Source: Candidatus Bathyarchaeota archaeon (lineage in GTDB: Archaea > Thermoproteota > Bathyarchaeia > Bathyarchaeales > DTEX01). Taken from it: a DNA stretch of 64,000 nt. Location: positions 224,001 to 288,000 of the forward strand of contig CAVQNT010000002.1 of assembly GCA_963714275.1 (NCBI GenBank), in the 5' to 3' direction. Within the stretch, counting starts at the first letter, position 1; every line of letters starts with the position of its first letter. The position numbers and the translations under genes are program-made. The notes beneath the pieces were generated by a model, which was given only the letters and a program-made list of their open reading frames with translations, had not been told where the DNA came from and searched no databases. Of this stretch, positions 39,111 to 64,000 are shown in pieces.

Positions 39111-39148
39111 ATTAATATTTAATGGTTAGAGCTCAGTTCACTAGTCGG

Positions 39149-39433: not shown

Positions 39434-39459
39434 CTACTTTCCCCTTCTTCTCTTCTGTT

Positions 39460-39642: not shown

Positions 39643-39732
39643 GTTGCTCCCTAAATCAATCTTATAAGAAATGAATACTTTAATCTTTGCTTTTATGAAA
39701 GATACATAGCTAAGCGAGAGAGGTGAATAAGA

Positions 39733-41126: not shown

Positions 41127-41355
41127 ATTTATTCTAAATTCATCTTCCCCAGCCTCTGTTATAGTTCTTATTACCCAGTATCCTTGCCTTCCCCTTTTTG
41201 CTGTGTTGCTATATTCTCTTATATTCTCTTGAGGTCATCTCGTCTTCTCTTCTTCTCTTCTACTTACTCAGCGCTCTGCACTCTGAACTTTGCACTACTC
41301 TACTCACACAAAATAAAGAACACGAGAAAGAAATAAAAAGCCAGCTATCTTCCAT

Positions 41356-41943: not shown

Positions 41944-42414
41944 TATTTGCCCTTCTTTAACAATTAAAATGATTCATTTATTATTTATATTATGGGGTTT
42001 GACAGAAATATATTTTTCATTAGATTTTAAATATGGGTATTCTAAAATCTCTAACTTATTAGATTCCAGTTGAATAAATCTGAAGAGCGTTGACCGTCTT
42101 GAGACATGATAATGAGTCTTTTAATGGCTCAAAAGTGAGAAAAAAAAGTAAACAAATACAAACAGCATAAAAATTTATGCAAATCCGACCAGCCCCACCA
42201 AAGACTCAAACTTATCTGGGTTTAGGTATGAGGAGAATTCCTGTTTTTAGTGACAAGTCGTTGTTGACAGCTAGCTAGCAGGTCTTTTTTACTCGTTTCT
42301 AAAGGTTATTAGTTGAACGAGTAAAAGCTCATCAAGCTAGCTATTAAATAGTGGGTTTTCAGAGGCTATTCTGTAAAAGCTTTAAATATCCTCTGGAGTT
42401 ACCTTTATTCTAAA

Positions 42415-43224: not shown

Positions 43225-43243
43225 TGGAGCAGAGAGATACCTG

Positions 43244-44278: not shown

Positions 44279-44463
44279 AATAAAAGGTTTCGCATAGGAT
44301 CTACAAGTCTATTATATAGAAAATATGGATATGATGACAGCTGAAGATAATAGCGCGCGCGAATAAAAATGATAATTGAATACAATAAAAAGCTAAAATT
44401 CAGAATATGAAATATAATATGAAAATTTAATAAATAAATAATAAGCGCACTAAGGTTATTAGG

Positions 44464-45929: not shown

Positions 45930-46191
45930 CATCGAGCAGTATTATTTCACACAAAAAACAAAAAATGAACGAATACAAACTAAGAATCTTCTTTTTTTCT
46001 TCATCGTAGTTTTTTCGGTCCAATCATATTTATGTTATATTTTTACCTTCTATGGGCATCAATCATAATAACAGCCTTAGGAGCAATAACAGACTATATC
46101 TCAGAAGCTCATTACGCATCTAACCCGCCAAAACAGGCTCTAACTGTTAGCTCACTGCGTTTGTGAGTTTAGAGGGGTTTGGGTTAGGGCT

Positions 46192-47067
46192 TTACTGTAT
46201 ATTCTCACGAAGTCGTATTCTTCTGTTACTTGTGTTATTCCCAGTTTTTCGAGTTCGTCTGTGACTTTTCCTCGGCTTGTTATGAGGAATCTCCATTGTG
46301 TCGCCTTTCAGTGAAACTTCTCTGACCTCCGGTATAGACCTAAGTTTTGTCAACGTGCGTGCCATGTTCAGGTCTTTTGTTGGAAAGGACAGTTTGATTA
46401 GCCCAAGTTCTTCCGCGATTTTTTCCATGCTGCCCCATCTTTTTACTTCGCCGTTCATGAAGAAGTATGCGTGGTCAGCTTTCAGTGGCATTTCAGCCAG
46501 GAGGTGGGTTGACAGTATCAGTGAGCATCCTGCGTGGACTTTTTCTGTTAATTTTTCGTACAGTTTCTGTTGGCTTATTGAGTCCAGTCCCCGTGTTGGT
46601 TCGTCGAGTATCAGCATTTCAGGTTCGCCCAGCAGAGCTGCTGTTAAAACGAGTCTTTGGTACATTCCTGTCGAATATCCGTCAATTGTTCTGTCAACGT
46701 AGCTGCTTATGTCGAACAGGTTTAAGCCGTCTTTTAGGTCTGTTTCTGACAGTTTTTCGAGCTTCGCGTAGTATCTTAGGACTTCTATGCCTTTAGCCCA
46801 TTTCGGTAGCGCGTGGTTTTCGAGTTGGACTCCCACTTTCTGCATGAGTTTGACTCTGTCTTGCCACGGGTTCAGGTTCATGAGTTCGATTTTACCGTTT
46901 GAGGGTTTGATGAGTCCGCTCATGATTTTGATTAGTGTCGACTTGCCTGAGCCGTTTGGTCCCAGAAACAGGTTTAGCCCTTCATACAGGTTGATCGTCA
47001 CGTTTTTTAGTGCGTCTACGGGTCCGTATCTCTTGTTCAGGCTTTCAGTGTGTCCTACTTCTTTCAA
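46192..47067 (-). CDS. ABC transporter ATP-binding protein
   Basis: GPNGSGKST, YSTGMYQR, LILDEP, STH. Confidence 0.9.
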   Translation of the reverse strand: MKEVGHTESLNKRYGPVDALKNVTINLYEGLNLFLGPNGSGKSTLIKIMSGLIKPSNGKIELMNLNPWQDRVKLMQKVGVQLENHALPKWAKGIEVLRYYAKLEKLSETDLKDGLNLFDISSYVDRTIDGYSTGMYQRLVLTAALLGEPEMLILDEPTRGLDSISQQKLYEKLTEKVHAGCSLILSTHLLAEMPLKADHAYFFMNGEVKRWGSMEKIAEELGLIKLSFPTKDLNMARTLTKLRSIPEVREVSLKGDTMEIPHNKPRKSHRRTRKTGNNTSNRRIRLRENIQ

Positions 47068-47557
47068 TAAATCTCATCCCTATGTCGAGGATTATGGTTG
47101 CAATCATGAAAACGAAGCTTGTGGCAACAGCTGGGACGATTATGTCTTCTTCGAGCTCTATGCCTTTCCAGCTTATGGTGAAACTGAATTGTGCCTCGTT
47201 TGGGTACGTGCTTGTTACGTTCACTGTGTAGAATCCTCTGTTTGATGGCGTGAAATCCAACGAGATTGATTGCCCCAATTGTCTTTCAAGGTTGAAGTCT
47301 CCGTACATGGATTTGATGGTTAACAAGCCTTCGAAATTGTCGTCTGTGGTTTGAAAAGAGATGTGGTATTCTTGAGTGGTGAAGTACCAGACATTAACCA
47401 TTTGCCCGTAAGGCAACATAGAACCTGTGCTTTGACCGCGGGAACCTACGCCGACAGCATCTCTAAGATAGGTGGCTGAAGCTATTGCCAGAGATGTTAA
47501 GGCTACAGCAAGTGTGAGAAACTTAAGAAACGAAAAGGTAAAGTTTCGTTTACTCAT
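47045..47557 (-). CDS. Membrane-anchored protein of the ABC operon
   Basis: N- and C-terminal TM segments; overlaps its neighbours. Confidence 0.6.
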   Translation of the reverse strand: MSKRNFTFSFLKFLTLAVALTSLAIASATYLRDAVGVGSRGQSTGSMLPYGQMVNVWYFTTQEYHISFQTTDDNFEGLLTIKSMYGDFNLERQLGQSISLDFTPSNRGFYTVNVTSTYPNEAQFSFTISWKGIELEEDIIVPAVATSFVFMIATIILDIGMRFIERSRTH

Positions 47558-48344
47558 ATTCCGTCATCCTCCCAAAGACTAGCCATGATAAAGCCAAGAG
47601 AACAAAGGAAGCGAGAATAACATTCAAGACTGTTCCAAAAACAAGCGGCTGTTGCCAAAATATGCTGGTCACGTTAGGGGTTAAGGTATATAGAATGCTC
47701 CACGGGGGAAGAGTTGTCCTTAGTGAAGTGGCTACTGTTTCTATGTATTCCAACATGTAGAGTATTGCGATTGAGATGCCTGCGGAAATAGATGTTTTCT
47801 TGATTATTATGGACAAAAAGGTTGCCAAAGAAATGATTACGAGGAACATGGCAAAGTAGTGCAAGTCCACAATGACCATTGACGGCAACATCTCTGGGAC
47901 GCTTAGAACGTCAATGAAGGCTTTAGGCTCCAACAGGACTAGATATATGGTCGAACCCACTATGAAAACCAGCGTTGCTGTAATGATTAGGTATGCAAGT
48001 TTTGCCAGAAAGACCGTTGTCTTTTTTACCGGCTTAAGCATCAGGCTTCTGAGAATTCCTGTCTCATGCTCATAAGAAAACACCACAGAGGTGAGTAGGA
48101 CTAGTAAGGGCGATACGAAACGGTAAATGTATATGAACGGGTCCGTTATTGTCCTGATTGAGCCGAGACAAACGAGTTTTCTTGTCCACGTTTCATCCCA
48201 TGCTACAGAACCGGTAAGTCCCAGGTTGATATCTTTAAACTGTAATGAGAAGATAAGCAGTACGTATATGGCTAAAACAAGCCAGAGTCTGTTTCTGTCC
48301 TTGAGCTCCCAAGAGAGGACGGTTAGGAACGACGTTTAGACAAC
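47550..48344 (-). CDS. ABC-2 type permease (start extended manually)
   Basis: EHETGILRSLMLKPV...FLAK; open frame upstream to VLSWELKD. Confidence 0.8.
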
Positions 48345-49213
48345 CTCTTAACGTAAATGTAGTAGACCAAAGGCAACAACGCGACCACAACGATCAACAA
48401 AGGAATGTACCACGGAAAACCGCTTCCGCCGCCACCAACAGTTGGCTTATCACTGCCCCTCAAAATGTTAGTGTCAAAAATAATCAAGGAACCAACGATC
48501 CAGCCAACCTTCTCCCGAGAATACTCGGACTTTACATCACCAAGATTCTTCCTGCACAGTATGATGCCAAACTTTTTTGTGAGAATGTCATCAGCATACC
48601 GATCAAGGGGGAATAACAGCAAGCCCTTTTCAACGTGATAATCGTATTGAAAACTCAGCGTGAAACCAATACCAACATTGCCGCCTATTTTCCCTTGAGA
48701 GAGCTCCAATGTATTAAGATCAACAAACGTCTGGTTTGGTCTTTGGCCAAACGCGGCGTTAATGAAGTCGAATTCGTTGAAGTACCCTATGGGCGTAAGG
48801 AAGGAGTGAGTAGGAGCATATATTCCGTATAGTGGTTGGACTTCACTCAATATCAATACATTGTCCCAAGTAATCTTAGTGCCTAAGAAGTCGTAGAAAG
48901 CTGTTACGCTTGTATTTGCCTCTCGAGGATAAATCCAGAACGGGCACTTGCCCCAAACCACTTCGGTGTCTCTGTCGACGAGGTCCCTAGTTTCTAGGTT
49001 AACCCAAACCGTGCATGATAGGCTTGACGTATTGAACAGGATGGGCAGCACGGTGCTTTCGTTGAGACTAACCTTTAGAAGGGCATAATTGCTGTCAACC
49101 TCAACCACGCTGAAACCATAACGAGCAACAGTAGTTTCGTTTGGAAATACCCCCCCTACAAGCACAAGACAAGTTTCATTCAACCTCACAACGCCACTCA
49201 TAATAAGACTCAT
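48323..49213 (-). CDS. Surface protein with C-terminal TM anchor
   Basis: GGGGSG linker, then FPWYIPLLIVVVALL and a basic tail. Confidence 0.6.
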   Translation of the reverse strand: MSLIMSGVVRLNETCLVLVGGVFPNETTVARYGFSVVEVDSNYALLKVSLNESTVLPILFNTSSLSCTVWVNLETRDLVDRDTEVVWGKCPFWIYPREANTSVTAFYDFLGTKITWDNVLILSEVQPLYGIYAPTHSFLTPIGYFNEFDFINAAFGQRPNQTFVDLNTLELSQGKIGGNVGIGFTLSFQYDYHVEKGLLLFPLDRYADDILTKKFGIILCRKNLGDVKSEYSREKVGWIVGSLIIFDTNILRGSDKPTVGGGGSGFPWYIPLLIVVVALLPLVYYIYVKRLSKRRS

Positions 49214-49360
49214 ATACTGCGTAAGAACCCGGCGTCAACCAATCAAGCTCGCCACAAACAACAGAACCTCTACAAACCAATAGAATTAATGACAGAAAAA
49301 GAAGGGGATAGTAAAGATTTTTATTCATATTTTCTCGGCCTCATTTTTCTAGCTCATCGG

Positions 49361-49755
49361 TTAAGGATTCTTCAAAGCTTTGTAGAGAAGATACGAAACT
49401 ATAGCTGAAAGAAATGTTTCTAAGCCAACAACAAGAGCAGCTCGCTCTAAAACCTCCATGATATTATTGGCAACCCAAATTAAAGCAGGACTCGATGCTA
49501 CACCAACCCAAACAAAAGTAGGAGTCGGAGATACTTCAATTATAGTATTATTGACCATGTCCCAGACAATAGCCTGACTGGGGAAAGTCCCGTAATCTCT
49601 TCATTTGTTGTCGGTGCTAACTCATAATGTCCTAGAATATAATCGTGGAAAAACGGGGAAAGAACAAGGTTCACTTGAAACCACAACATCAACAGAATAA
49701 ATGGCACAACAAAAAACCAACGATCCCTCAACCACATCCCCCTTACCCTTAACAA
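49361..49755 (-). CDS. 2-TM membrane protein, paralogue of 39149-39433 (one indel)
   Basis: Both ends are near-identical in nucleotide sequence to the 39.1-39.4 kb copy. Confidence 0.65.
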
Positions 49756-49863
49756 CCAAATCTTGGAGACCCTGCCTTATAAAATATTGCACAAAAATGG
49801 CAGAATGTGTCTGGTTTTCTAGGTAGTTAACCGTTCATTGAGCCTTTTTATTAGTCAGCTATA

Positions 49864-49918
49864 GATTCTATGACTCTTACTTTAAGATAAAGACTTTAAG
49901 ATGCAGAATCATAGAGTC
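49864..49918. promoter_or_regulatory. Inverted plus direct repeat site upstream of the tail operon
   Basis: GATTCTATGACTCT ... AGAATCATAGAGTC (12/14 inverted) enclosing two copies of ACTTTAAGAT. Confidence 0.5.
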
Positions 49919-49977
49919 CTAATTATAGATTATTTCGTGAAAATAAGTTAAATATAGTCTTTTTAACATAGTTTGTT

Positions 49978-50325
49978 ATGCCTTACTGCGACAGTGACGA
50001 TGTTCGCCTTGTTTGTGGAGTCGCAGAGAACGTTATCAGCAGCGGAGACATCGGCGGTTTAATTGTTTTTAGTGATCAGGAAATTGATGACAAGATAGGA
50101 AGCAGCTTCGGGGAATCTGTGCCTACACGGATCACTCGCCTTTCTGCTCTTTTGACGTCTATCCAGATTTACAGTCGTCCAGATTTTCGTTTCCGCCTTG
50201 GAAAAGCTGGCGTTGACGAACAAACAATAGAAAAGAATCTTGACCGTTGGCAGGCTGAAGCAGACGAGATTTTCGATTTTTACAGCGAGACTGATGAGGG
50301 AGCTTTCAGGGTGGTTCAGGCTTGA
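49978..50325 (+). CDS. Head-tail adaptor-like protein (gp6/gp15/Mu gp36 type)
   Basis: MPYCDSDDVR...SDQEIDDKIG...VP..I..LS, the typical adaptor N-terminus and size. Confidence 0.6.
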   Translation: MPYCDSDDVRLVCGVAENVISSGDIGGLIVFSDQEIDDKIGSSFGESVPTRITRLSALLTSIQIYSRPDFRFRLGKAGVDEQTIEKNLDRWQAEADEIFDFYSETDEGAFRVVQA

Positions 50326-50777
50326 CAGATCTTTCAGAAATTAAACAGGAGATTGTTGACATCCTCGTTGTTGATACAGAGCTTATGGAGCTTCTCGGTG
50401 AGGATCCTGCTGGAGACGTGCCTGTTTATAATGGTTGGCAGTTAGGTAAGCATCCGGTTCTTCCAAGTGTCACCGTAACTGATAGTGCTGATGTTGGAGA
50501 AATTTCTGGGCTTGGTGATGGCTTTGATGGAACAACAGTTTACGAATGGTCTTACACGGTGATCCAGATTGACGTGTGGGCTGCTAACGAAGCCTCGAGG
50601 GATGCTATTAGCGCTCAGGTCCGTAAAGCCTTGCTTAAGGCAGCTGTTGGCTTGTCAGGTTTAGGGATAGCGTTTTTGTCTTCTAACATTGTCCCGGTAA
50701 ATGAAGCTAATGAATTGATTTTCCGTCATTGTATCCGCTACACTGTTTTTTATCAGTTGGAGGTTTCGCTGGAATGA
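50322..50777 (+). CDS. Tail terminator / tail completion protein (DUF3168-like)
   Basis: PSVTV...IQIDVWA...RDAISAQVRKAL. Confidence 0.7.
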   Translation: MTDLSEIKQEIVDILVVDTELMELLGEDPAGDVPVYNGWQLGKHPVLPSVTVTDSADVGEISGLGDGFDGTTVYEWSYTVIQIDVWAANEASRDAISAQVRKALLKAAVGLSGLGIAFLSSNIVPVNEANELIFRHCIRYTVFYQLEVSLE

Positions 50778-50897
50778 GGAACCTTATTCGGGCGTCTTTG
50801 CTTGGCGGCTTATTCATTCTTGAGCCTAAGATTGCGTTGATCGCAACTGCTGGCGTGTCATCAAGATTATTGATTAGAAATTGGAGGAGGCGAAAAC

Positions 50898-51347
50898 TTG
50901 GAAACAAAAAATAAGGTTGTAGCTGCTTTGCTACTAATCACCTTACTTTCATGTGTTGCAGCTGGCGTTTATGCTGCTGCTGTTTATCAGGCTACTATAA
51001 CTGGCACGGGAAAAATTGTTTCTTTAAACATCGCTGTTTACAGTGATAGTGCTTGCACAGTTAAGTTGTCTTCGATTGATTGGGGAAGCCTATCTCCCGG
51101 ACAAACTAAAACGGTTACTTGTTACGTGAAAAGCATGTCAACCGTTAATTCTACTCTTTCATTGTCAACTGGAAGCTGGAACCCGTCTTCAACGTCAACT
51201 TATGTCACTCTTTCATGGGATCATGCTGGATACAAGATTAAACCGAACGAAGTTCTCACTGTAATTTTTACTTTAACTGTTAGCCAGTCAATCACGGGGA
51301 TCTCAACTTTCAGTTTCACAATAACGATAACGGCGACGGAGGCTTAA
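50898..51347 (+). CDS. Secreted Ig-like protein, TasA/bundling-pilin-like
   Basis: Hydrophobic signal ending GVYA; IDWGSLSPGQTKT..CYVK; terminal strand FSFTITITA. Confidence 0.5.
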   Translation: METKNKVVAALLLITLLSCVAAGVYAAAVYQATITGTGKIVSLNIAVYSDSACTVKLSSIDWGSLSPGQTKTVTCYVKSMSTVNSTLSLSTGSWNPSSTSTYVTLSWDHAGYKIKPNEVLTVIFTLTVSQSITGISTFSFTITITATEA

Positions 51348-51727
51348 TGAAAATGTTAGGCGCTTTTGATAATCCCCAAACTATCGCTGCGGTTCTCGGC
51401 TTCAGCTTCGGATTCCTTTACGGTGAAGCTTTCAGCAAATTTGATCAAGCAGTAAAATACGAGAACACTTGGTATGAAACCCTTAATCCCGTGCTCAAGT
51501 GGTTCATAGCCAGCCTTCTTGACGCTAACCACCATTTTCAATATGGGCTTGTTTTGATGTTGCTTACGTATCTCTATTCTTTGCCTCCGTTATGGCCGTT
51601 GATTTTGTGGTGGGCTGGAGCCGGTCTTGTTGTAAGCGACTTGAAAGACTACCAGTATGTTCTCGAAAGAATGGGGTTAGTGAAAGATCTCGGATCACAG
51701 ATATCAAATCAAGATCAAAAAAAGTAA
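51347..51727 (+). CDS. Membrane protein (3 TM)
   Basis: Hydrophobic segments; LLDANHHFQYGL. Confidence 0.55.
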   Translation: MKMLGAFDNPQTIAAVLGFSFGFLYGEAFSKFDQAVKYENTWYETLNPVLKWFIASLLDANHHFQYGLVLMLLTYLYSLPPLWPLILWWAGAGLVVSDLKDYQYVLERMGLVKDLGSQISNQDQKK

Positions 51728-51745
51728 TGGAGGAAAAAAAGGAAA

Positions 51746-52166
51746 ATGCCAGTCTATGTCGGAAAAAACGTCTACGTGTTCATCACAGCAGACACCAGTG
51801 GAGACATGGGCGCTTTCGTTGCCCAGGAAGTTACGATTGAGCCTAAACAGGCTGTTGAAGGCTTGGACGCTCTTGGATCTGACACGATCGAAGAATGGGC
51901 TGCTGGACTAAAAACTTACGAAGGAACAATTAGGGAACCATTGAAAGTTGGAGACGACGGAGAAACTCAGCCTCGCAAGAATGTCAGCCTTGCAGGAAGA
52001 TCTCACAGAATATGATATGCAGCTGAAATTCAACAACCCAAGCGGAGACATTAGCATCAGCTTTACAGGCGTGATCTTTCCTGACGTTTCTGTTTCTGCA
52101 CCAAAGAACAAACCGGCAATAGTATCGACAAGGTTCAAAGCGAAAACCGCTGCTGTCGACACTTAA
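51746..52166 (+). CDS. Major tail tube protein (one indel)
   Basis: AQEVTIEP..VEGLDALGS...GLKTYEGTI / ISFTGVIFPDVSVSAPKNKPAIVSTRFKAK; ~140 aa; syntenic position. Confidence 0.7.
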
Positions 52167-52188
52167 GAGAATTCTCTTTTAGGAGAAT

Positions 52189-52524
52189 ATGCACTTGGAG
52201 AAAACACTGTCTTTCAATGAAGTCTTAACTAAAATTGAAACTATACGGAAACACAGCGTCTATGTTGAAGAGCTTGGCGGATCTATCCCTTATTGCGACT
52301 TGACTGTTGAGGACTTTATTGAAATCACCAAAAACAAAAACGAAGACAACACTGAGCTCAACGTTAAGATCTTCTTTAAGGCATGGCACCACGCAGACCC
52401 GAAGGTAACGCTTGAGGCAGTGAGAACTAAGATTCCTTTGCCTATAGTCCTAAAAATCGTTAAGGAAATTGTGCCAGGGCTTGTTCAAACAGTCCCTTTA
52501 GGGAATTCGCCAGGTCCGAAATAG
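52189..52524 (+). CDS. Tail assembly chaperone (gpG-like)
   Basis: Lies between tube and tape measure genes and ends in a slippery heptamer. Confidence 0.7.
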   Translation: MHLEKTLSFNEVLTKIETIRKHSVYVEELGGSIPYCDLTVEDFIEITKNKNEDNTELNVKIFFKAWHHADPKVTLEAVRTKIPLPIVLKIVKEIVPGLVQTVPLGNSPGPK

Positions 52525-52733
52525 GCAGACGAATTTACTTGCTCAAGCGTCTCGGTTTCAGTGTTTCGCAGATCCTTAGGATGCCGTGGAGCCAAGCGAC
52601 GTTCTGGATGGAAGCAATAGCCTACGACAATGAGCTTTGGACTTCTCGAGACGTCTCTGGAAGCCAAGAGAATTCCGAAGAAGCCTACGATCTAAACAAC
52701 TTCGCAAGGACTCTACCGAAAGCAAAGAGATGA
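52494..52733 (+). CDS. gpGT-like -1 frameshift extension
   Basis: C CCT TTA at 52494-52500; the -1 frame is open (FREFARSEIGRRIYLLKRLGFSVSQILRMPWSQATFW). Confidence 0.6.
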   Translation, partial: PFREFARSEIGRRIYLLKRLGFSVSQILRMPWSQATFWMEAIAYDNELWTSRDVSGSQENSEEAYDLNNFARTLPKAKR

Positions 52734-52838
52734 AATTATCACACGTGTAATAAAGCCAGAAAAGCTGTCCATTATGCCACGTGGCATAAAAGAAAAATTG
52801 ACTAAAGGGCAAGCTTTACCGAAAGCAAGGGTGAAAAA

Positions 52839-53199
52839 ATGAGCCTAACCATCGAAGTAACAGGCGTCGACAAACTTGTTGAACGCCTGAATCAAATGCA
52901 GACCATAAAAGAGCCCGTAGCGGAAGCTAATGGAGCTTTATCTCGAGAAGGTAGTCACTGACGCTAAGTCTATTGTGCCCGTTAGAACTGGCACCCTTCA
53001 GCGAAGCATCATGTTTTCAGGGGGAGATGGAGAATACCAAGTTGGTAGCCGAGTTTTTTATGCGCCTTTCGTGGAATATGGGACCTCGAGGATGCGTCCT
53101 CAACCTTTTCTCGGTCCTGCTCTTTTGTGGAACATTCCAGCTTTGAAAGAAGCCTTGCTGGACATTGTTGGAGATTGGCTTAGGAGACGTGGAGAATGA
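52839..53199 (+). CDS. HK97 gp10-like tail completion protein (one indel)
   Basis: IEVTGVDKL...PVRTGTLQRSI...YAPFVEYGTSRMRPQPFLGPA. Confidence 0.88.
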
Positions 53200-54482
53200 G
53201 CGTCCAACTTCCAGAACTTGTTACCACCGCTCGAGTTGTAGATGAAGCTTCGGACACTTTGAGGCAAATTGCGACTAACGCAAAGGGTTCTATGAGTGAT
53301 ATGGAGACTGCTGCACGTCAAGTTGAAGATGCTCATAAGCAGATGAATGCTGGGCTTAAAGACGTAGTCACAGGGTTCAGCGGTGTTGCCACTTCAGCCT
53401 TTGCCCTTTACAATGCTTATGATCGAGTTACAACTTCAGAAGTTGCGCTTGACCGAGCTAATCTTGTTGTTAAAACAAGCGCTAACGCCGTAGAAGATGC
53501 GCAGAACAAATTGAATGCTGCCGTAGAAAAATATGGTCCAGACAGCATTCAAGCTCAGTCTGCAGCTAAGGATTTCACTCGCTCAAGAACGGTATCAAGT
53601 GGCTGTTGAACGTGCTGATACTTGCTCAGGGTAATCTTAATCAATCAATGGTAAGTGCAGCTATTCAAGTTATTCCGTCAGTCATCACAGCAATATCCAG
53701 CCTTTCTAAAATGACGGGCGGAATCGACAAAGTCACCGAGTCCCTGGGAATATTGTCCAGTTCTGGAGGTTTGGGGGGAGTAACTGAAGCCATGGGCGCA
53801 GCGTCCGCTGGATCCTCAGGTTTAGGCGTCGCTTTAGGCGCATTAATTGTTCCGATAGCCGCTGCGACCGCTGCGGGACTTGCATTAGTTGGAGCTTTAG
53901 CAGCTATAGGATCCTGGGCAAAAGCGCAATATGACAGTTTGAATATGTCAGCAGAGGCAACAGCGAAAGCAAGCAACATGATGGATGATTACACGGAATC
54001 AATTATCGAAAATGCTAAAGCTAAGCAGCCCTGGCGTCTGGAAGCGCATCTTCTACGCCTACCGTAACAACAACAACCACGACAACGACCACAACTCCAG
54101 CATCTACCGTGACAACTCCGACTGTTGTGGTGAATCCAACAACAACACCTACTCCGGCACCTGCGTCAACAGTTGTAGCGGGAGGGGGAGGAGATAACAT
54201 AAGTAATGATGATGCAGGAAGGAGGCTTCGGAATTGTTGACAAGCCTACCCTGTTTTTGGCTGGAGAACACGAGCCTGAAGCTTACTCTTTCTGTCCCGC
54301 AAGCAAGGTGGGAATTCTCCTCCTTTGAAAGGTCTTTAACGATTAATTTTAGTCCAAACATTCAATCAGGACCCGTTTACGGTGTTAGGGGAGTCCGTGA
54401 GCTCGCTGACCTCTTGTATGATGAATTTAACAAGAGGATCCGTAACGAACTGAAAAGCAGAACATTGTATTTGGAGAGGTAA
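53196..54482 (+). CDS. Short tape measure protein (several indels)
   Basis: ARVVDEASDTL, Ala-rich helices, and C-terminal MQEGGFGIVDKPTLFLAGEHEPE. Confidence 0.75.
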
Positions 54483-54485
54483 AAG

Positions 54486-55310
54486 TTGGCTGTAACCCTA
54501 AAGGCTGGAGCGAATAGTCTTGAGCTTGGAGTTGTAAGAGGTCTTCCCTTCACTCATTCAGGCCGTATTGCAGAGGTTGATTTGCCCGGTAGCCGTGGTT
54601 CAAGCCGTCAGGATCTTGGTAAAGAGCCTATGCGAATAACGTTTCAGGCGCCTTGACTGGTGATGACCGTTACGAAAACTTCGATCAGCTCGAAAGGTAT
54701 AGAGGCCTTGGTTACGGCTTAAAGCTTGAAAGTCCATACCTCAACACTATTGCTTTTTTGGATAGCGTTAATCTTGCGGGCATCAGAAAAACGGTGCTGG
54801 ACTACAGTCTTAGGTTGACGGAGAGCAAGTTTAAAAGTCTTGATAATTGCGACACAAAGGATCAGTGGCATTCGGATGACGGCGGAGACCAGACTCTTGA
54901 GAATGCTGATCCCTTGCCGAAGGAAGGCGAATACTGTTTCAAGCACACTGAGACCGCTGACACAGTTCTGGATTTACAACGATTTCGACATTGTAGATTT
55001 ATCAAATTATGATTACATAGCGTTCTGGTTCTACGTGAACTGCATTGACCTGACTTCTCTCGAATTAAAGATTTATAATGACAACAATAACACTTGGCTG
55101 AGTTACGATTTTCTGCCTTTAATCACGGAAGCTAACAAGTGGCACCGCATACTTCTTCACAAGTCCGAATTCACGGTTCATTATAGCGGAGACCCTCCAG
55201 AAGAGGTCTCGTTCGACTGGAGCGCCCTAGAGGAATTCTTTTTTGAGTTTACTAGAGCGGATTCTCAAGAGATGGTTTTCTGTTTTGACGATTTGGGAGC
55301 GTATGAGTAG
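54486..55310 (+). CDS. Distal tail / tube-initiator-like protein with C-terminal CBM-like domain (indels)
   Basis: IAEVDLPGSRGSSRQDLG..PMRITF; DLSNYDYIAFWFY...W..I..HKSEF. Confidence 0.55.
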
Positions 55311-55328
55311 GTTTCATGGTGATTAAAA

Positions 55329-56045
55329 ATGACAAGATACGTAAATGAAGATGCTGAAACGAAGGTTCAAGTTCTGGATAGTAATGGAGACCCAGCGACT
55401 GGAGCAACGGTTCTCTACAAAATATATGATGAGGCAGACGTGCTTTTCGATTCTGGTTCGATGAGCCATATTGCAGACGGCATTTTTACTTTACAGTGGA
55501 CACCCGATGCTGTTGGCGAGTGGACTTTCGAAGCTTACAGTTCTAATCCTAAGTTCAGAGATTCAAAGGTTTACAAGATTGAGTCTATCTTAGCTTTCAA
55601 GCATAAACCAGACATATACGACCTTCATGAACCACCAGACCTAAACACATGGTATACCCCGCTCGACGTTAGTGGCGGAGCAAGAGTTAAACTGGTAGCG
55701 ATAGAGCAAACTAATGATGAATCTAATGCTAAGGACATTGAGTATGAGTTCACTATTGATGGCGAAGTTTATACTGAAACTTACCCATGCGCTCATGGCA
55801 AGTATTACTCGTTTGTTACAACTTATCACGGTGGCATAGAGCCTATTGAGGGATATGAACAAGTAGCTACGTTCGGAGTTCAGAAAAGAGACTACATATC
55901 CGCTACTGTCGAAGAAATTGAGTCTTCAGAAGGATTTTCAGAAATGCACGCATTCAAATTTAGATACCGTATGACTTCAGCGCCAGGCACAAACCAAGAG
56001 ATGCATTGCGTAATTATCTATGACAAATTAGAGAAAGTGACTTAG
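55329..56045 (+). CDS. Putative virion structural protein
   Basis: Ig-like N-terminus (G.FTLQWTPDAVGEW); acidic. Confidence 0.5.
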   Translation: MTRYVNEDAETKVQVLDSNGDPATGATVLYKIYDEADVLFDSGSMSHIADGIFTLQWTPDAVGEWTFEAYSSNPKFRDSKVYKIESILAFKHKPDIYDLHEPPDLNTWYTPLDVSGGARVKLVAIEQTNDESNAKDIEYEFTIDGEVYTETYPCAHGKYYSFVTTYHGGIEPIEGYEQVATFGVQKRDYISATVEEIESSEGFSEMHAFKFRYRMTSAPGTNQEMHCVIIYDKLEKVT

Positions 56046-56078
56046 TTCACGTTTAAAAACGCTTTGAAGTGAACTTTC

Positions 56079-58354
56079 ATGATTGAGCCAGTGATAATTG
56101 ACGATGAATCCATTGACGAAGAGGACATAACCGTCCGCGCCTTAACCAACTTTCAGACATCACTTGTTGTGCCACGTGGAATCTTCAACGACAATTTTGA
56201 GGGCGAAAACGGACATCCTCCCGACCACGGTAAGTGGATTCGTTTCTTTTGCGGAGATAGCTTGTCTGAGCAGGGTTACGGAGAAAAATACTGTGACATC
56301 CAAGATGGAAGGCTTCGGATGCAGATGAACGGCGACGGAAGCGGAGACGGATGGTTCTACCTGAACTGCATGACTCGTGCTGAGTTTAAGGTGCCCTTCA
56401 GCCTTTCATTTCAAGTAACGATTGAGCATAATGTCGGTCAATGCGGAAACCACTTCATGTTTTCTTTCGTGGATCCTGACCCTAACCGCGGATTTCTGCT
56501 TAATTCTAAACTTTACGGAGATACTCCAACTACATTGTGGGCTTTCGATGACTATGAAGGGACTGATTACTGCTGGGTGCTTAATTGTTATGGAGGCATG
56601 GTTATTAGCGGAGAGAACGCTTGGGAGCCTGACCACGTTTACAACGTTTCCCTCGTTCCAGATTTCACTGATTCTCATTCGACCATTCTCACTATCACGG
56701 ACAATGAGACTGGTGACATAAAATTTCAGACTAATCAAAACTTGGTGGATCCGCAAGTAAAATATTTGCGGGCGATGTTCAGCGTTTACGAGTGGGCTGA
56801 AACCTTCACAGCGTTCACCGTATTTTATGTCGACAATTTCAGCGTTGTGAGATCTACAAGCAAAAAGGCGAAGGCTGTCGTCAGCATGGCTCACTCAGTG
56901 TTGTGGCATGATGGTGACGTTGGTAACCTGTTGGAGGAAGCTAACAGCTTGCTGCGATTTCCTTTTATGGTCAAAGGTTTACTCAACCTGAAGACGGAGC
57001 TTTAACTTCGCTTAGTTTTTTTTCGACTGGTGGTCAGGACGTTCGCATTCTGCTTTATGATAGTGCTGGGAACATTCCTGGCTCTCCCCTGACTGAAAGC
57101 ATTGAGGTTGAAGGCACAGCTGCGGGCTGGAACCAGGTTGGAGTCGGCGGGGTTAGTCTCGATGAAGGCGTTGATTACTGGATTGTTTTTGATATGAGTG
57201 CTGGAGGCGGAGTTCGTTTTAGTGGTGATGGTGGGCATCGTGCTTTCATCGAGGATAGCTGGCATTATGGAGACCCGTTTCCTGACCCTTGGGCTGGAGG
57301 AGAATATGATACAGGCTATCAAGCTGAGGTTTTCTGGATTTATGAGGTATCAGCTCACACTGACATCTTAATAGCGAGTGATGATGTTTCTGACATTAAC
57401 GTTTCTTTAAGGGACAGCTGTTACCCTTCTTCTTCAGTCACGCTTGACAATAAGCACGGGCAATATGACGACATCAGAATCATGGATGAAATCGAGATTC
57501 GTGCTGGCTGGGATCATATTTTGTGGCTTCTTTTCAGGGGCTACATTGACATTCCAGAATTCAGTTTTCCTCCTGCAACCGTGGAGATCTCGAGCAGCAA
57601 GGGCTACGCTTCTGCGCTTGAGTTTAGGGAAACTGATGAAGAATCTTGGGTAGATGAGGATTCCGAAGATATCGTGCAGAGCTTGATAGAGAATTATTAT
57701 GATGATTCTCAATTCACACCTGACTGGATTGATGAAGGCATAGAAATCAGCCTTGACAGTGACGATGAGCCTGTTAGTGAGGTTCTGCAGAAAGTTGCGG
57801 AGATGAATGGTTTTATCGTTTATGTTGACTTTAACAAGGCTGTTCATTTTGTTGACCCTGACGATGATTCTACGCAGAGTAATCTCAGCATTTCTAAGGC
57901 TGAAGACGTGGTGAGCATAAAAAACCGTCTTGTTGACTCGATTGTTAACAGGGTTACGGTGAAAGGCGCTGAAGACAATGTTACAGTTGAAGATGAAGAT
58001 AGTCAAGACGTTTATTGGCGCCGGGACAGGACTTTCACTGATGAGAAGCTAACGAGCTTAGCAGCTGTCACCGCAAGGGCTAATGAGATTCTCGCAAAAA
58101 TGAAAGATCCTTACCAAGAGGTCCCGATTGTTCTTCCCGAATTCTATCTTCTGGAACTGAATGACGTTCTAACTGTTTATTGTGATGCAGTCGGTTTCAG
58201 CGACCCTGATGAAGGCGAATTGATAACGGTGAAGGGTGTAACTTACAATTTTAATCCTTCTGGGCTTCGGACTACGATTAGCGGGGTAAACAGGGGCTTC
58301 GTTGTCTCTGACGTTCTTAGTGATCATGACAAAAAGTTGAAGGGGATATCTTAA
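56079..58354 (+). CDS. Baseplate hub / tail protein with N-terminal lectin-like domain (indels between 57005 and 57194)
   Basis: EIEIRAGW...LFRGYID; LQKVAE..GF..YVD....HF; IVNRVTVKG; SQDVY..R. Confidence 0.65.
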
Positions 58355-59080
58355 ATGACGGGCAGGATGCAGCACGGGACAATTCATTACACTGCTTCCG
58401 AGATTCAAGCGATGGCTGGAGGAGGTCTAGGCGGGGGAGCTGTACCGATCGGTGCGATTCTCATGTGGAGCGGGACTTTGCTTACAATTCCGTCAGGTTA
58501 TCAACTGTGCGACGGCACGAATAGCACTCCTGACTTAAGAAGCAAGTTTGTGAAGGGAGCTGCTATTGGACAGAATCCCGGAGGATCAGGGGGAGGCACA
58601 ACTTACGGTCATGCTGGAGGATCTGTCACAAGGGGGACAGCTGGAGTAACAATAAACAATGAATCTTCTCACACTCACGCTAATTCTGCGAATACGGGTG
58701 CTGGATCAGCTCACACTCACACCGTTGGAACGACAGCGGTGACTCCGACTACTCATAGCAGTCAGGGCGGGCACACTCACAATTCGCATACCACGGCAAC
58801 AAGGGGCACAAGTGGAAGCACCGCTGTGACGGGACCTTCAACTCATGACAATCAGGGAGCTCACACTCATGATAACCACGGTTTGACTTGGGGACCTGCT
58901 AACGAGTCTACTCACACGCATCCAATAGGGGGAAGCACTGGCACGGGCACAGCTCACAGTCACGGTGTAACTGAGCCTAATGCTGGCGCTGGTCATGATC
59001 ATGGTTTTACTCAGCCAAGTGACCACACTGGCGTTGAGCCTTCGTATTATGCTGTCGCATTCATTATGAGGTTGACCTAA
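58355..59080 (+). CDS. Tail fibre/spike with collar domain and HxH repeats
   Basis: VPIGAILMWSG..IPSGYQLCDGTNSTPDLRSKFV; seven HxH motifs; PSYYAVAFIMR. Confidence 0.85.
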   Translation: MTGRMQHGTIHYTASEIQAMAGGGLGGGAVPIGAILMWSGTLLTIPSGYQLCDGTNSTPDLRSKFVKGAAIGQNPGGSGGGTTYGHAGGSVTRGTAGVTINNESSHTHANSANTGAGSAHTHTVGTTAVTPTTHSSQGGHTHNSHTTATRGTSGSTAVTGPSTHDNQGAHTHDNHGLTWGPANESTHTHPIGGSTGTGTAHSHGVTEPNAGAGHDHGFTQPSDHTGVEPSYYAVAFIMRLT

Positions 59081-59252
59081 AAATGTCTGGGACGATTGAG
59101 GAACATGAAGCCGAATTTATCAGGGGATTCTTAGCGGAAGCTCGGGAGATTCAAAGGAAATACGGGATTAACAAGTCTGAAGCCTTGGGGATCCTGGTTC
59201 TTCTGGAGCTAAAGAAGATTCACAGCCACCTTGATAAAACGGAGGGTTCTGA

Positions 59253-59516
59253 ATGACTGCTTGGGGAAGCAAGAGAAGTAGGCTTGAAATTTACTTGGAC
59301 GTCCTGAAGGTTTTGCGGAAGGGAGAATCCAGGCCTACACGGATAATGTATCAGTCAAATTTGTCGTGGAAGCCTTTGGTACAGATTCTTGATAGTTTAG
59401 TGAGGCAGGAAATTATCGAAGTAACCCAAGACAACTTTCACAGTGTTTACCGCTTAACCAAAAAAGGCGTCAATGTTCTGGAATATTTCAAAAATGTAGA
59501 ACTGGAGACTGATTGA
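59253..59516 (+). CDS. Winged-HTH regulator (paralogue of 31561-31830)
   Basis: KRSRLEIYLDVL...PTRIMYQSNLSWKPL. Confidence 0.85.
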   Translation: MTAWGSKRSRLEIYLDVLKVLRKGESRPTRIMYQSNLSWKPLVQILDSLVRQEIIEVTQDNFHSVYRLTKKGVNVLEYFKNVELETD

Positions 59517-59877
59517 AACGACAAACATTGATCTAAGCGAATTCAAAAAGGGAGATCTTATTCGTGTTGACTGGTTCGACGCTTCAAGGGGACAGGCCTT
59601 AACGATCCGTGGAAGGCTGGATATCCCCGTTTACAGTTGGGGAATCTACTTAGGAGTTCTCGGACAGAAAAGGAGACATATCGTTCTCGCACAAAACAGC
59701 TTCAAGCTTAACAACGAATTCTATGACGTCGATTACACCTGCATCCCTGTGAGCTTCCTTGACGGTATAACGGTAATCCATAAAGCTGAGCTCTCGCCTG
59801 ACGTCGCAGAGCTGTTGTTGTTAAGCTTCACTTCTGGGCGTAGGCGCATAATTAAGGAGAGAACTGTAAATGCCTAA
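59509..59877 (+). CDS. Hypothetical protein (non-canonical CTG/ATT start, or an indel)
   Basis: Manual: a 122-codon open frame KGDLIRVDWFDAS...VYSWGIYLG...HIVLAQN...DVDYTCIP fills the gap and overlaps both neighbours. Confidence 0.65.
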   Translation: MIETTNIDLSEFKKGDLIRVDWFDASRGQALTIRGRLDIPVYSWGIYLGVLGQKRRHIVLAQNSFKLNNEFYDVDYTCIPVSFLDGITVIHKAELSPDVAELLLLSFTSGRRRIIKERTVNA

Positions 59878-60079
59878 ACCTGAGAAAGAGCCCAGGATAA
59901 CAATTAAGAATCTCGGCATCAGAATCGGCACGGCTGACTATCGTTTTCTTATTGCCCTGATCCTCACCCTTGGCCTTATAGTTGTTCTCGTTAAGGGAGA
60001 CGTGGAAAGCGGTAAAGTCCTTTCACCCCTTGTTCTTCTTGCGGTTGCATGGTATTACAAAGACAAAGTGAAAAGGTGA
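59870..60079 (+). CDS. Small 2-TM protein (holin-like)
   Basis: Two TM segments and a basic C-terminus. Confidence 0.45.
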   Translation: MPKPEKEPRITIKNLGIRIGTADYRFLIALILTLGLIVVLVKGDVESGKVLSPLVLLAVAWYYKDKVKR

Positions 60080-60082
60080 TTT

Positions 60083-60614
60083 GTGATGCCGAAGGGTAAG
60101 CCTTGGACTAACGATGAAGAAAAGCAGCTTAGAACAATGTTGGATGAACGGAAGCACATTGACTTTATCGCTCAAACTCTTAGTAGATCTAAGGAAAGCG
60201 TTAAAGTAAAAATTAAGAGGATTGGAATAGAAGTTGTTGTCACCCCCGTTTCAGGTCTCACAACAACTTCTGATTTAAGTTCTTCCAGTGGAGCTTCCAA
60301 GCGTTGAGGAAACGCTCAAAACTTTGTGTGCTGCCATAAATTCTCTTAAAGCTCGAGGTCTTGACCAGGCTGAAGTTTTCCGTTTACGGACTATGATTCA
60401 GGGTTGTAAGATCTACAAGGAGCTTCTTGCGGACTACATCAATTATCGCGGGATTGAAATGAGAATAGATGAAGATGGAGGAAGATTATGGACGTCTATT
60501 ATCGGAGGCCAAGGGCGTGGCGGGCAAACCTGCTGTTTCCAAGGTGGTTTAACGCTCAGGACCTTAAGCAGCAATTTGATGAAATTAAGGTCTCGCAGGC
60601 GATGGAGTCAGTAA
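60083..60614 (+). CDS. Myb/HTH protein, terminase small subunit candidate (indels)
   Basis: GKPWTNDEE...IAQTLSRSKESV / ELPSVEETLK; immediately upstream of TerL. Confidence 0.55.
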
Positions 60615-61936
60615 TGATCCTGTGACTTTTTTTGAGCAAGTGGTGGGATTCAAACCCACGTCTTACCAGGTTAACTTTATCAAAATGTTTCAGGAAAAAC
60701 AGTTTATTGCAGCTCGGTGGTGTCGTCAGTCAGGTAAGAGCTGGATTATTTCAGCGTTGCTTTTGTGGTATGCCCTGACGCATGATGACAGTTATATCGC
60801 TGTCGTAGGTCCTTCGTGGAGACAGACGAAGCTCATCATCAGACGTATAACCTATTTTCTGCGTAAAGTCCCTCCTGGAATGTTCACGAAGCCACTGAAG
60901 ACTGTGATCAGGTTCCCTAACGGAAGTGCATAGAAGCTTTCCCGAACAATCCTGACACTATCCGAGGTCCAACGCTTCAAGTCGTGTATTGCGATGAAAT
61001 GAATTTTATTCGTGATGATGAAGAGCTCTATGATGCCTGCCTGTTCACACTTGGCACGACTAACGGGAAATTCGTTTGTAGCATGCAACACCTTGGAATA
61101 CTGACAGCATTTTCTACAAGATTTTTAACCACAAAGATTACGAAGACTTTGCTAAGAGTCATGTTACCTGGCACGATGCTGAGGAGCCTAATGGACCTTT
61201 AAAAAAGAACATCCTAGACAAGATCCGTAAACAATTCGCTGAGGATCCCTGGAGATGGAAAAGGGAGATGGAGGCAGATTGGTCAGAGGACGAAAATGTG
61301 TGGTTACCGCAATCTTTGATAACAAAGTGCATCGGAACAGAACGGTCTTGCGGAGAAGACCTTGATCTGGCTAATCCTGACATCGGACAAAGGGGACGGT
61401 ATTATGGTGGGCTGGACTTTGGCAAACATGGAGACTACACAGCCTTCACAGTTATCGACAGCGTAGCTGACAAGTTCTTACTTAGATACATGAAGATATG
61501 GCCACTCGAGACGCCTTATGCTTCAGTCATCGGCTTCGTTAAGCAGATTCAGGACCGCTGGAGTAACTTCATAACGATTCGTGCTGACCAAACAGGAATA
61601 GGCGACTATATTGTTGAGGATATGAAGAACGGCGGAATCCTGAATGTTGAAGGAGTCACCTTCAGCCTTCCCAGAAAACAAGAGATGGCGAGCCTTCTCA
61701 AACAGAGGATGATGGACAACAAATTCTATTATCCCTATTTCACTTGGGACAAGCCTTACCGCAGCGAATACGTTGCTGAGTTGAATGTTGAAAGGTTCAG
61801 CCTAAGGAAAGATGGCACCATCGTTCTTAATCATCCTCAAGGCACCCATGACGACGTCTTTTGGTCGACAGCACTCGCCTTGTATGCTACAGTTGAGATG
61901 AAGCCTATTGATCCTGACGGATTCAGGTTCGGGTGA
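60488..61936 (+). CDS. Terminase large subunit (several indels)
   Basis: RWCRQSGKS (Walker A), YCDE (Walker B), GLDFG, DQTGIG, HDDVFWS. Confidence 0.9.
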
Positions 61937-61942
61937 TAGATA

Positions 61943-63376
61943 ATGAAAGATTTGCGGATCCACAAATTTAGGCGCCTTTACGATAGGTCAACGGGAAAGT
62001 TTACAGTTGATATTAAATATTCCACGAGAGCTGACATCACTCCTAGGACTATTGGGGTTGCTGAAGCCTTCGGACTGGGCATTGATGAAGCAAAACTGCA
62101 CGTCATTTACGATAACGCAGAATTCCAGATTGGCCAATCAGATATCGTTTACATCACTGGCGAAAGCGGTTCTGGAAAGTCCGTTTTGCTACGGGCTTTT
62201 GAGAAGGACCTGGGAGATGAAGCTCTTAAACATTGATAGCCTCACGCTGGATCCTGACAAGCCTCTTATTGAAACCGTAGGTAAGGACCTGAATGAAGCC
62301 CTCGAGCTTTTGAGCAGAGTTGGGCTGAATGACGCTTACCTGTTTCTCAGAAAATACCGGGAGCTCAGCGACGGACAGAGATATCGTTACAGGATAGCTA
62401 AGCTCATAGAGTCAGGTAAACAGTTCTGGATAATGGACGAGTTCTGCGCCACATTGGACCGTGAGACTGCGAAGATCGTAGCCTTTAACGTGCAGAAACA
62501 AGCCAGGAGGACAGGCAAAGCCGTGATTGTGGCAACTACGCACACTGATCTCCTTGAGGACCTTGCCCCTTCAGTACACATCCATAAGGGTTGGGGGAAA
62601 CGTCTTGAAGTCAATTATTATTCTAACCAGATTAACATTGTTTGCAGTGTTTCGAGGGATCTTAGAATCGAGGAGGGCTCCATGAAGGACTATGAAGCGT
62701 TAGCGGAATTCCATTACCGCAATGTAACTGCTCATCCGGCTCCAATTAAGACCTTCACGTTATGGCGAAGCGATAACGAGCTTGCAGGCGTCATCGTCTA
62801 CTCTTATCCTCCGCCACAGATTTTCGGGCGTAAGGAAGTCTGTTGGAAGAAGTCTTCCGATTCAGGAATTGAACGAGAAACTTGCGTCAATCAGCCGGGT
62901 TGTTCTTCACCCGAAATACCGCAGCATAGGCTTAGGCGCATATCTTGTTAGGGAAACGCTGCCCCTATGTGGAAGACGCTACGTTGAAACTATGGCTGTT
63001 ATGGCGCAGTACAACCCTTTCTTTGAGAAGGCGGGAATGAAGAGAATCGCTGAAAGAAAATCAGATACATCAATCACTGAAGCTATAGATAGCCTTGAGC
63101 AGCTAGGCTTCAAACCCTACCTCTTATCCAGCCAACAAGCAAACATCAACAAGCTAGATACATTAAGCGAAACTCAACTAAACAAAGTGCAAGAAACACT
63201 CTTACAGGTCAAGACAGTATATTATAAAAGGCTACGGTCAACAAGCGAAATCTTCCTTAAAAAAGAAGAGTTTGGAAAATGGCTACATACAGACTTCTAA
63301 TGACATCACAGCTAAAGTAATTACTCGTTTGTCAGTTCTCGCTGAAACCAAAATTTACCTGTTCTGGGAGAATTGA
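61943..63376 (+). CDS. ABC-ATPase / GNAT acetyltransferase fusion (indels)
   Basis: GESGSGKS, LSDGQ, IMDEF, ATTH; FHYR and ISRVVLHPKYRSIGLG. Confidence 0.85.
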
Positions 63377-63538
63377 AATCCTATAGAATGAACCTAAGTT
63401 GCCAACAGCGAATTTCGTTTTCCGGTGTAATCAAATAACAACAACCTAATTTAGGATTAGATAAAAGTTTGGGTTTGGAAAATAAAATATAGAAATCAAG
63501 AAAACCTAAAAGAAATTGATTAAATATGGCGAGTAGAT

Positions 63539-63990
63539 TTGGCTGATCAAGAATTTTACGAATTCGAGTCCCAGATTGATAAGAAGACAAAGGTCATAGT
63601 TAATGATTTTTCGTTGAAATGTTCTCGTCCAGACATAATAATAGTCAAAATTTTTAAACAACTTGAAAGAAAATGGAAACAAATCGGACAAGCAACAATC
63701 GAAATCACAAACTCAAAAAAAGATGATTGGGTGACATCGAAATTGGTTCAATACGATATGAATATAAAGGATTTAGGGGGAAAGGCATTGGAACCAAAGT
63801 CGTCCAACTAATGCTTGAATATCTTAAACAAAACGGAATAGAAGGAGTATATGGCGAAATAAGCAATGTAGATGATGTTGAAAAGGTAATAAATTTTTGG
63901 AGGAAAAACGGCTTTACAATAACCTTGTATGAAAAACGGGAAGGGCATTTTATAGCAAAAATAAGTTATAATCTGTTTAAAGAAAGATAG
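63539..63990 (+). CDS. GNAT acetyltransferase (one indel)
   Basis: FRGKGIGTKVV...INFWRKNGF. Confidence 0.75.
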
Positions 63991-64000
63991 CAGAAAGTTA

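Follow-up and report, generated by a model that had tools for sequence, protein, structure and literature searches.

The 64,000-nucleotide stretch of DNA analysed here (the window; C2:224001-288000 of contig CAVQNT010000002.1, assembly GCA_963714275.1) comes from a Candidatus Bathyarchaeota archaeon and carries an operon of phage tail genes that has no head genes beside it. This operon very probably represents the neck, tail and packaging genes of a 58-kb tailed provirus, the head genes of which are on another contig, C6. The two halves were likely separated by a reciprocal exchange with a second integrated island. The source genome (G000) comprises 2.64 Mb in 10 contigs and is 91% complete; C2 (1 Mb), C6, C7 and C10 are contigs of it. 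Bare coordinates are window positions, and coordinates with a contig prefix are positions in G000. The other G-numbers denote relative genomes, and L-numbers denote individual sequence stretches from relatives, metagenome contigs or G000.

An earlier note on this DNA had proposed a head-less operon that was either tailocin-like, gene transfer agent (GTA)-like or part of a split provirus. The last of these readings agrees with the present analysis. The first two do not, given the integrase, the attachment (att) sites, the sister copy and the empty integration sites.

Attachment sites, empty sites and the two halves

The provirus extends beyond the window. At C2:302-308.2 kb, 14-20 kb past the window end, there are a putative MarR-like gene (no Pfam match), ParB and a Zn-ribbon tyrosine integrase, followed by host genes. 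The integrase, 21 kb 3' of the operon, ends at C2:308198 and contains a 17-bp attR core (C2:308179-308195) in its 3' end. This 17-mer occurs exactly twice in the 2.64 Mb, the second occurrence being attL (C6:59578-59594), which is 74 bp from tRNA-Thr(GGT) and marks the left edge of a head-only element. In a control for chance matches, 0 of 19,986 random 200 x 400 bp window pairs had a 17-mer in common. In G406, a single 17-mer is present between adjoining tRNA-Thr and Lrp-family genes, with a left flank 91.6% identical to C6:59430-59594 and a right flank 88.9% identical to C2:308177-308519; the site is thus empty. The tRNA-Thr gene is about 125-130 bp 5' of the Lrp orthologue at three of the four same-genus loci: the arrangement recurs in G226 and G405 with a divergent core sequence, and G408 differs. 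At 25 loci from other genera, this tRNA is nearby but differently placed in 3, and is missing from the fetched flank in 22. A close copy of the operon was found in none of the five same-genus genomes searched. The provirus would therefore have integrated between tRNA-Thr(GGT) and the Lrp-family gene, presumably by means of its own integrase.

The head-only element on C6 contains a head module (C6:63644-69425) with no tail after it, including a portal (C6:63713-64549; phrog_146, E 4e-34) and an HK97-fold capsid (C6:66864-67739; PF04454, E 1e-32, and PF09950). A full-length sister provirus (60,370 bp) is also located on C6, at 310-370 kb. Its copy of the operon (C6:337.5-352.7 kb) is 78-91% identical to that in the window, with similarity beginning 158 bp 5' of the adaptor gene. 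The sister head module, 11 kb 5' of the tail and past a cargo block, comprises portal, protease, scaffold, decoration and Linocin_M18-like capsid (phrog_264) genes, to which the tail-less module is 80-87% identical. In total, G000 has two loci each for portal and capsid, all of them on C6, and two tail modules. When the head-only element (C6:59578-72367) is rejoined to C2:262760-308195, the resulting 58,226 bp align collinearly with the sister over their full length; of 16 matches of at least 80 bp, 15 follow the collinear order and one is a short paralogue in inverted orientation. Because of the att pair, the empty site and this collinearity, the spare head on C6 and the tail in the window are regarded as a single provirus. 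It has the features of Caudoviricetes: an HK97-fold capsid, a portal, a large terminase (TerL, in pieces), tube, tape measure, neck and tip genes, and an integrase with att sites and an empty site.

The element is consequently not head-less, contrary to the earlier suggestion: portal and capsid genes are both present in the genome, on C6 rather than beside the operon, and are tied to it by the att sites. Head genes just beyond 64 kb, a possibility raised by the earlier note, are not seen either, as a tblastn search of C2 with the sister head proteins returned only a 40% match to a small accessory gene at C2:325 kb. The same note had considered a one-off deletion in an element whose relatives have head genes upstream. 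Relatives do have them, but here the head was moved rather than deleted.

A second island, P2 (24 kb), is divided between the same two contigs. Its left end is in the window, and a 15-bp sequence there (18556-18570) recurs inverted at C6:75647-75661. In G406, G226 and G405, only 32-54 bp separate the sequence corresponding to window 17417-18499 from that of C6:75676 onward, such that the P2 site is empty in all three same-genus genomes that have the gene (five were searched; the gene was not found in G408 and G351). P2 was therefore also cut in two, and the swap is reciprocal. The 15-bp inverted repeats are just within both ends of P2, and an integrase is near each (window 18598 and C6:72702). 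P2 is possibly a tyrosine-recombinase element bounded by terminal inverted repeats.

Both hybrid elements contain a near-identical cargo block of 2,691 bp (99.2%), which is the sole repeat of at least 1.2 kb and at least 97% identity between C2 and C6. Its C6 copy starts about 260 bp past the end of the head module. The block is the likely crossover or mis-join point. Recombination between its two copies would result in inversion or translocation of the intervening chromosome; contig-end overlaps, examined with regard to inversion versus chromosome fission, yielded no join. The block was also sought in 200 further genomes of the order, and only matches of less than 45 bp were found.

Some observations count against this reconstruction. 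Pieces flanking the block (35646-36064 and 39718-40354) adjoin each other at C7:125.1-126.8 kb, an adjacency that a single crossover inside the block would not produce. The piece at 39718-40354 matches alone in G406 and in run contigs, preceded by unlike sequence. Cassettes may have been shuffled around the block, and the exact crossover position is uncertain. Additionally, an att pair was not found for the sister, and no replication gene was recognised in either copy among the ORFs (open reading frames) listed, the left-end ORFs being mostly outside the family scans. A 16-mer at C6:164779 was tried as a sister att site and taken as a chance match, seemingly within coding sequence.

TAGCTA or CTAGCTAG-like words were noticed by eye, without a control, at several cargo junctions (window 36060-36080 and 39700-39720; C6:69675-69690; C7:125560-125630; L119:330-470). 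Near-identical cassettes are common to many islands of G000, for which a cassette-shuffling mechanism is possible. Further remnants of the same element skeleton, without virion genes, are present at C2:325-343 kb, C4:1-16 kb, C10:1-23 kb and window 20.4-33.6 kb; these contain regulators, integrase, small terminase (TerS)-like and GNAT fragments, and the box found upstream of the adaptor gene.

The tail operon and gene order in the virus group

The operon is a run of closely spaced plus-strand ORFs from 49978 to about 63300, as previously described (Table 1). Thirty-two ORFs were scanned against PHROG and Pfam. Matches, some of them weak, were obtained for the terminator, HK97 gp10, tape-measure pieces, hub, fibre, HTH_45 regulator, N- and C-terminal TerL pieces, and ABC and GNAT domains, while portal, protease, capsid and sheath families had no match among these ORFs, in agreement with the earlier note. 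The tube was assigned by fold: the intact G406 orthologue was modelled (predicted local distance difference test, pLDDT, 87) and matched tail tubes in Foldseek at E 1e-5 to 1e-3. This model had 50 PDB matches at E 0.001 or lower, and nearly all of those listed are tail, injection-system or Hcp structures. The adaptor is a less certain assignment. Its Atlas neighbours are mostly viral, with Mu gp36 / Phage_connect_1 clusters at 0.95, and its fold model, a helical bundle, has phage neck proteins as its two best Foldseek matches (E 0.47-0.78); the search returned no match at E 0.001 or better. The chaperones and TerS, also named in the earlier gene order, are placed by position; the TerS candidate has no family match. 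The first chaperone ORF is 57-64% identical in G050, L144 and G406, and 84% in the sister. An intact 444-aa G406 homologue of the tape measure matches the PHROG tape-measure family at E 2e-14.

Table 1. Coordinates of features in the window (strand "." where none applies)
Position	Strand	Feature	Evidence or remarks
18556..19833	+	Left end and tyrosine integrase of second island (P2)	Empty site in G406, G226, G405
36072..38759	-	2.7-kb cargo block (AbiV-like HEPN gene and 479-aa ORF)	99.2% identical to C6:69684-72367
38760..49819	.	Cargo in the slot between head and tail	Sugar isomerase, oxidoreductase, secreted and membrane proteins, ABC cassette
49820..49977	+	Upstream region	Purine-rich stretch and TATA-like box (49948-49955); 91% identical to C6:337545-337700
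49978..50325	+	Likely head-tail adaptor (gp6/gp15/Mu gp36-like helical bundle)	Atlas neighbours, weak Foldseek
50322..50777	+	Tail terminator	phrog_78 E 1e-3, PF11367 E 2e-3
50898..51727	+	Two ORFs: 149 aa secreted-looking, 126 aa membrane-looking	Both in sister; no family match
51746..52166	+	Tail tube protein, frameshifted	Fold of G406 orthologue, 65% identical to N-terminal piece
52189..52733	+	Two likely tail assembly chaperone ORFs	Position; no family match
52840..53199	+	HK97 gp10-like tail completion protein, frameshifted	phrog_5 E 1e-18, PF04883
53196..54482	+	Short tape measure protein, in pieces	PHROG tape-measure matches E about 1e-3 to 1e-4
54486..57005	+	Likely distal tail / tip genes	Homologues in sister and G032; no family match; first gene carries two frameshifts
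57194..58354	+	Tail hub-like protein	phrog_1887 E 1e-11
58355..59080	+	Tail fibre / collar-like protein	phrog_5795 E 7e-14, phrog_2097
59253..59516	+	Winged-helix regulator (HTH_45)	PF14947 E 1e-19
60083..60614	+	HTH gene just 5' of TerL, candidate small terminase, frameshifted	One ORF in L144, G090
60622..61936	+	Large terminase, in pieces (ATPase and RNase H-like nuclease)	phrog_2, phrog_5909, PF03237, PF17289
61943..63300	+	ABC ATPase-GNAT fusion, frameshifted	Family matches; single ORF in relatives
63380..64000	.	Right cargo slot start	Element continues past window

A TATA-like box, TTAAATAT, ends 22 nt 5' of the operon's first ATG (about 25 nt was previously given), and the region containing it may act as the operon promoter. 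A 16-mer of this region is also found in the C6 sister, in metagenome contig L119 and in a remnant at C2:343.2 kb; the box is kept in all three, with different genes upstream. A promoter at the edge of the cargo slot therefore appears to be a trait of close relatives and not a sign of domestication. A sigma-70 promoter scan was set aside, as the model is inapplicable to archaea.

The operon is preceded by minus-strand membrane and ABC genes, and GC content drops from 0.48 to 0.34 past ABC-GNAT, where AT-rich cargo begins; both features had been recorded correctly before. The cargo 5' of the operon probably belongs to the provirus, and the sister carries an 11-kb cargo slot at the equivalent position. 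In G406, the ABC cassette 5' of the adaptor is not orthologous to that in the window (33%, ATPase alone). Cargo beyond the window, to about C2:300 kb, includes DNA methyltransferases and a second methionine aminopeptidase. The latter (L122:1258-2157) sits in provirus cargo and is 95% identical to a copy on C10 that has host neighbours. A small membrane-protein gene is duplicated (80%) at 39145-39446 and 49357-49744, the second copy being just 5' of the adaptor region, and a third copy is on C10. The sister has three cargo slots, with arsenic-resistance-like and ABC genes and type I restriction-modification genes (labelled by eye).

Relatives of TerL are present in 189 of 401 genomes of the class, often several in each. 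About 30 longer stretches were examined for gene order, and nine of these outside G000 have head, tail and TerL genes together. In seven (G090, G114, G229, G346, two in G347, and viral contig L144), the order is head - tail - TerL, with ABC-GNAT next in six and the seventh stretch ending at TerL. The exceptions are G011, which has the usual TerL - portal order, and G032, which is otherwise arranged. The remaining stretches are partial, or show a TerL or adaptor gene standing alone in a host context. Head and adaptor are directly adjoining in G114 and up to about 15 kb apart elsewhere (G302). In this virus group, it is normal for terminase to come after the tail. The provirus would be laid out as head - cargo slot - tail operon (under a promoter of its own) - TerS/TerL - ABC-GNAT - cargo slot - integrase, which would explain why terminase stayed with the tail after the split. 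In the literature covered, with most subscription papers and supplements outside its scope, neither a head - tail - TerL layout nor dispersed genes were found described, and the available passages of PMC11705971, PMC13573593 and PMC13669383 do not describe the layout.

Lone truncated adaptor remnants are present between housekeeping genes in L104, L117 (G196, G292) and L143, at the same site in G196 and G292. Pairs of TerS-like and TerL genes occur in L051-L052 (G347) and L057 (G199), with no other virion gene within the fetched flanks.

Rearrangement, mis-assembly and domestication

In the assembly, the modules from attL to attR are not contiguous, the head being on C6 and the tail on C2. A real rearrangement is slightly favoured as the cause and is somewhat more probable than not. 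The principal rival, that the provirus is intact in the cell and that the assembler exchanged flanks at the 2.7-kb repeat, has a substantial though smaller chance of being correct; it keeps the reading as one provirus and differs solely in the cause of the split. The break falls at the only long near-identical repeat between C2 and C6, and the assembly is rich in errors, with frameshifts in 17 of 50 host or other genes. According to the part of the study available, prophage inversions in Staphylococcus aureus could be separated from assembly errors only by raw-read phasing (10.1101/522078). In contrast, the two block copies differ by 11 substitutions across 2.1 kb, and this spread indicates that they are distinct. 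Moreover, C2 is 1 Mb long and contains both copies of a 9.1-kb inverted repeat of 98% identity, which suggests that long reads were used. These copies are at C2:80457-89565 and C2:962456-971573 (98.1% identity). Of 18 sequencing runs listed, none contains more than 14% of the words and none is listed as RNA; no listed contig piece from 6 of these runs bridges 49.8 kb or the block ends, which is uninformative as to the junctions. If the rearrangement is real, the split provirus would no longer be excised as a unit, but it could still express its genes or complement the sister with them.

Over the 8.8 kb covered by intact relatives, the operon contains about 14 frameshift sites and no in-frame stop. 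Similarly, the sister has 10 frameshift sites in 9.8 kb, several of them in the same genes. By a cruder count, 17 of 50 host genes are frameshifted (0.35 per kb), compared with 6 of 7 element genes (1.2 per kb). The occurrence of indels in the absence of nonsense changes points to sequencing error, and the higher rate in the element makes some decay possible. A homopolymer error model is unsupported, since only 8 of 71 indels between the copies are in runs of at least 3, against a background of 16%.

That a GTA-like system is in the making, with a real split, two operons under their own promoters and particles that package host DNA, is improbable. The upstream region is 91% conserved between the window copy and the sister, compared with about 80% for the adjoining coding DNA, and the ratio of nonsynonymous to synonymous substitution rates (dN/dS) between the two copies is 0.14 for the tail and 0.16 for the head; these values, along with the lack of stops, speak for such a system. 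However, the comparison is between two proviral copies and not host orthologues, and the ratios therefore reflect selection on the virus lineage before integration. Relatives have dispersed intact head genes, and two have a tail and TerL cassette with neck and tube genes 29-65% identical to those in the window, yet in G000 itself the dispersed type of capsid is missing and the portal survives only as broken remnants. Additionally, the locus has an integrase and att sites, three genomes of the same genus (G406, G226 and G405) have the site empty, and the frameshift density of the operon exceeds that of host genes.

A domesticated non-contractile (F-type) tailocin that kills competitors is very hard to reconcile with the data. 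It would account for the absence of sheath genes, the short tape measure, the TATA-like box and the lack of adjoining head genes, but not for a head module tied to the operon by att sites or the retention of adaptor, TerL and integrase; the operon is not inherited at the site, and no lysis gene was identified. The prospects are equally slight for a helper-dependent satellite with tail and terminase of its own and heads borrowed from the sister, which at 78-91% identity could provide them in trans, as there is no left att site on C2 and attL on C6 precedes the provirus's own head genes. The domesticated tail particle, the GTA with an unlinked head module and the helper-dependent element that the earlier note put forward are thus without support, given the integrase, att sites, full-length sister, empty sites and normal position of the terminase, and the locus is dropped as a tailocin or GTA candidate.

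Dispersed genes in relatives and comparison with known systems

Related Bathyarchaeia contain head genes of a different kind. A distinct capsid type, recognised with PHROG and Atlas, is present in 8 of the 46 other genomes of the family (7 full length, 1 fragment) and not in G000. It is part of a cassette of four genes that is surrounded by host genes and has no linkage, or a loose one, to a lone portal. This capsid cassette, the lone portal and, in G406 and G050, a tail-TerL cassette are located in G406 (contig positions of that genome C2:33.4-35.8 kb, C2:58.9-60.1 kb and C4:38-51 kb) and in stretches L215-L217, L224-L227, L230-L233, L240-L245 and L141. Nine dispersed capsids without internal stops form one clade (100/99). 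Its sister pairs fit genus labels (G050 with G404, 100/99; G406 with G351, 86/91), and several other forks are open. The lone portal adjoins the same host genes in G406, G226, G351, G360 and G401, with identity like that of its neighbours, and the proportions of synonymous (pS) and nonsynonymous (pN) differences are 0.53-0.94 and 0.06-0.25, respectively. Matches to G000 integrases were not seen in the dispersed-gene stretches, and the dispersed genes are absent from the orthologous sites of G000. G406 and G050 also have an intact tail - TerL - ABC-GNAT cassette, of which the adaptor is the first gene in G406, while in G050 a few phage-like genes come before it. This cassette is related to the window operon in its neck and tube genes, and its TerL is only 31% identical.

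From their genes, the dispersed portal and capsid set is a candidate GTA-like system, apparently inherited vertically. Counting against a GTA are its patchy distribution, broken remnants in several genomes and fragmented assemblies, as well as the presence of a close full-length TerL of the cassette type in only 2 of 46 family genomes. Nothing related to a GTA in Bathyarchaeia was found in the literature covered, again with most subscription literature outside its scope. A broader scenario, in which the split in G000 is real, both halves are active, with the provirus on its way to becoming a two-locus producer of particles, and the same virus group (its modules under separate promoters and set apart by cargo slots) gave rise to the dispersed cassettes as an archaeal multilocus GTA, is unlikely but would merit attention. 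The larger lead is in the relatives, where a lone portal is intact at an orthologous site in three genera or more and the capsid cassette forms a single clade and is strongly constrained. Should these dispersed genes build particles, the Bathyarchaeia, which are abundant sediment archaea, would own a domesticated gene-transfer system. For G000, a Bathyarchaeia provirus layout is documented that readers expecting terminase beside the portal would misread, and the case illustrates how shared defence cargo could cut a provirus in two.

Among known systems, F-type tailocins such as monocin likewise have non-contractile tail genes without adjoining head genes, and monocin tubes are among the Foldseek matches of the G406 tube model. 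Unlike them, the operon keeps adaptor, terminase and integrase, and a matching head module is elsewhere in the genome. The gene transfer agent RcGTA keeps terminase. As described in the parts consulted of PMC5026251 and PMC5721377, its virion genes are at unlinked loci, which is shared with the two halves reported here and, at the level of genes, with the multilocus dispersed set of the relatives; however, RcGTA is passed on vertically with stable flanks and is expected to lack an integrase, in contrast to the integrase, att sites and empty same-genus sites found here.

The proposed 'Fuxiviridae' and 'Kunpengviridae' (10.1101/2023.08.24.554615) and BATPV1/2 (PMC11705971) share with the provirus a portal, HK97-fold capsid, TerL, tube, tail genes and defence cargo, and Kunpengvirus also an integrase, according to the sections of these sources available; this likeness is drawn from descriptions rather than sequences. 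In Fuxivirus, TerL (27), portal (28), capsid (34) and tube (38) are numbered in the usual order in the portion seen (10.1101/2023.08.24.554615). The provirus differs in having TerL and ABC-GNAT after the tail, cargo slots, a Linocin_M18-like capsid and no replication gene that was found. The prophage-mediated inversions of S. aureus, as far as the accessible part of that report goes, also involve reciprocal exchange at a near-identical stretch and carry the same risk of confusion with assembly error (10.1101/522078). There, two prophages share more than 10 kb and the chimeras retain all genes, whereas here the partner is an island in which no virion genes were seen, only 2.7 kb of cargo is shared, and head and tail have been separated.

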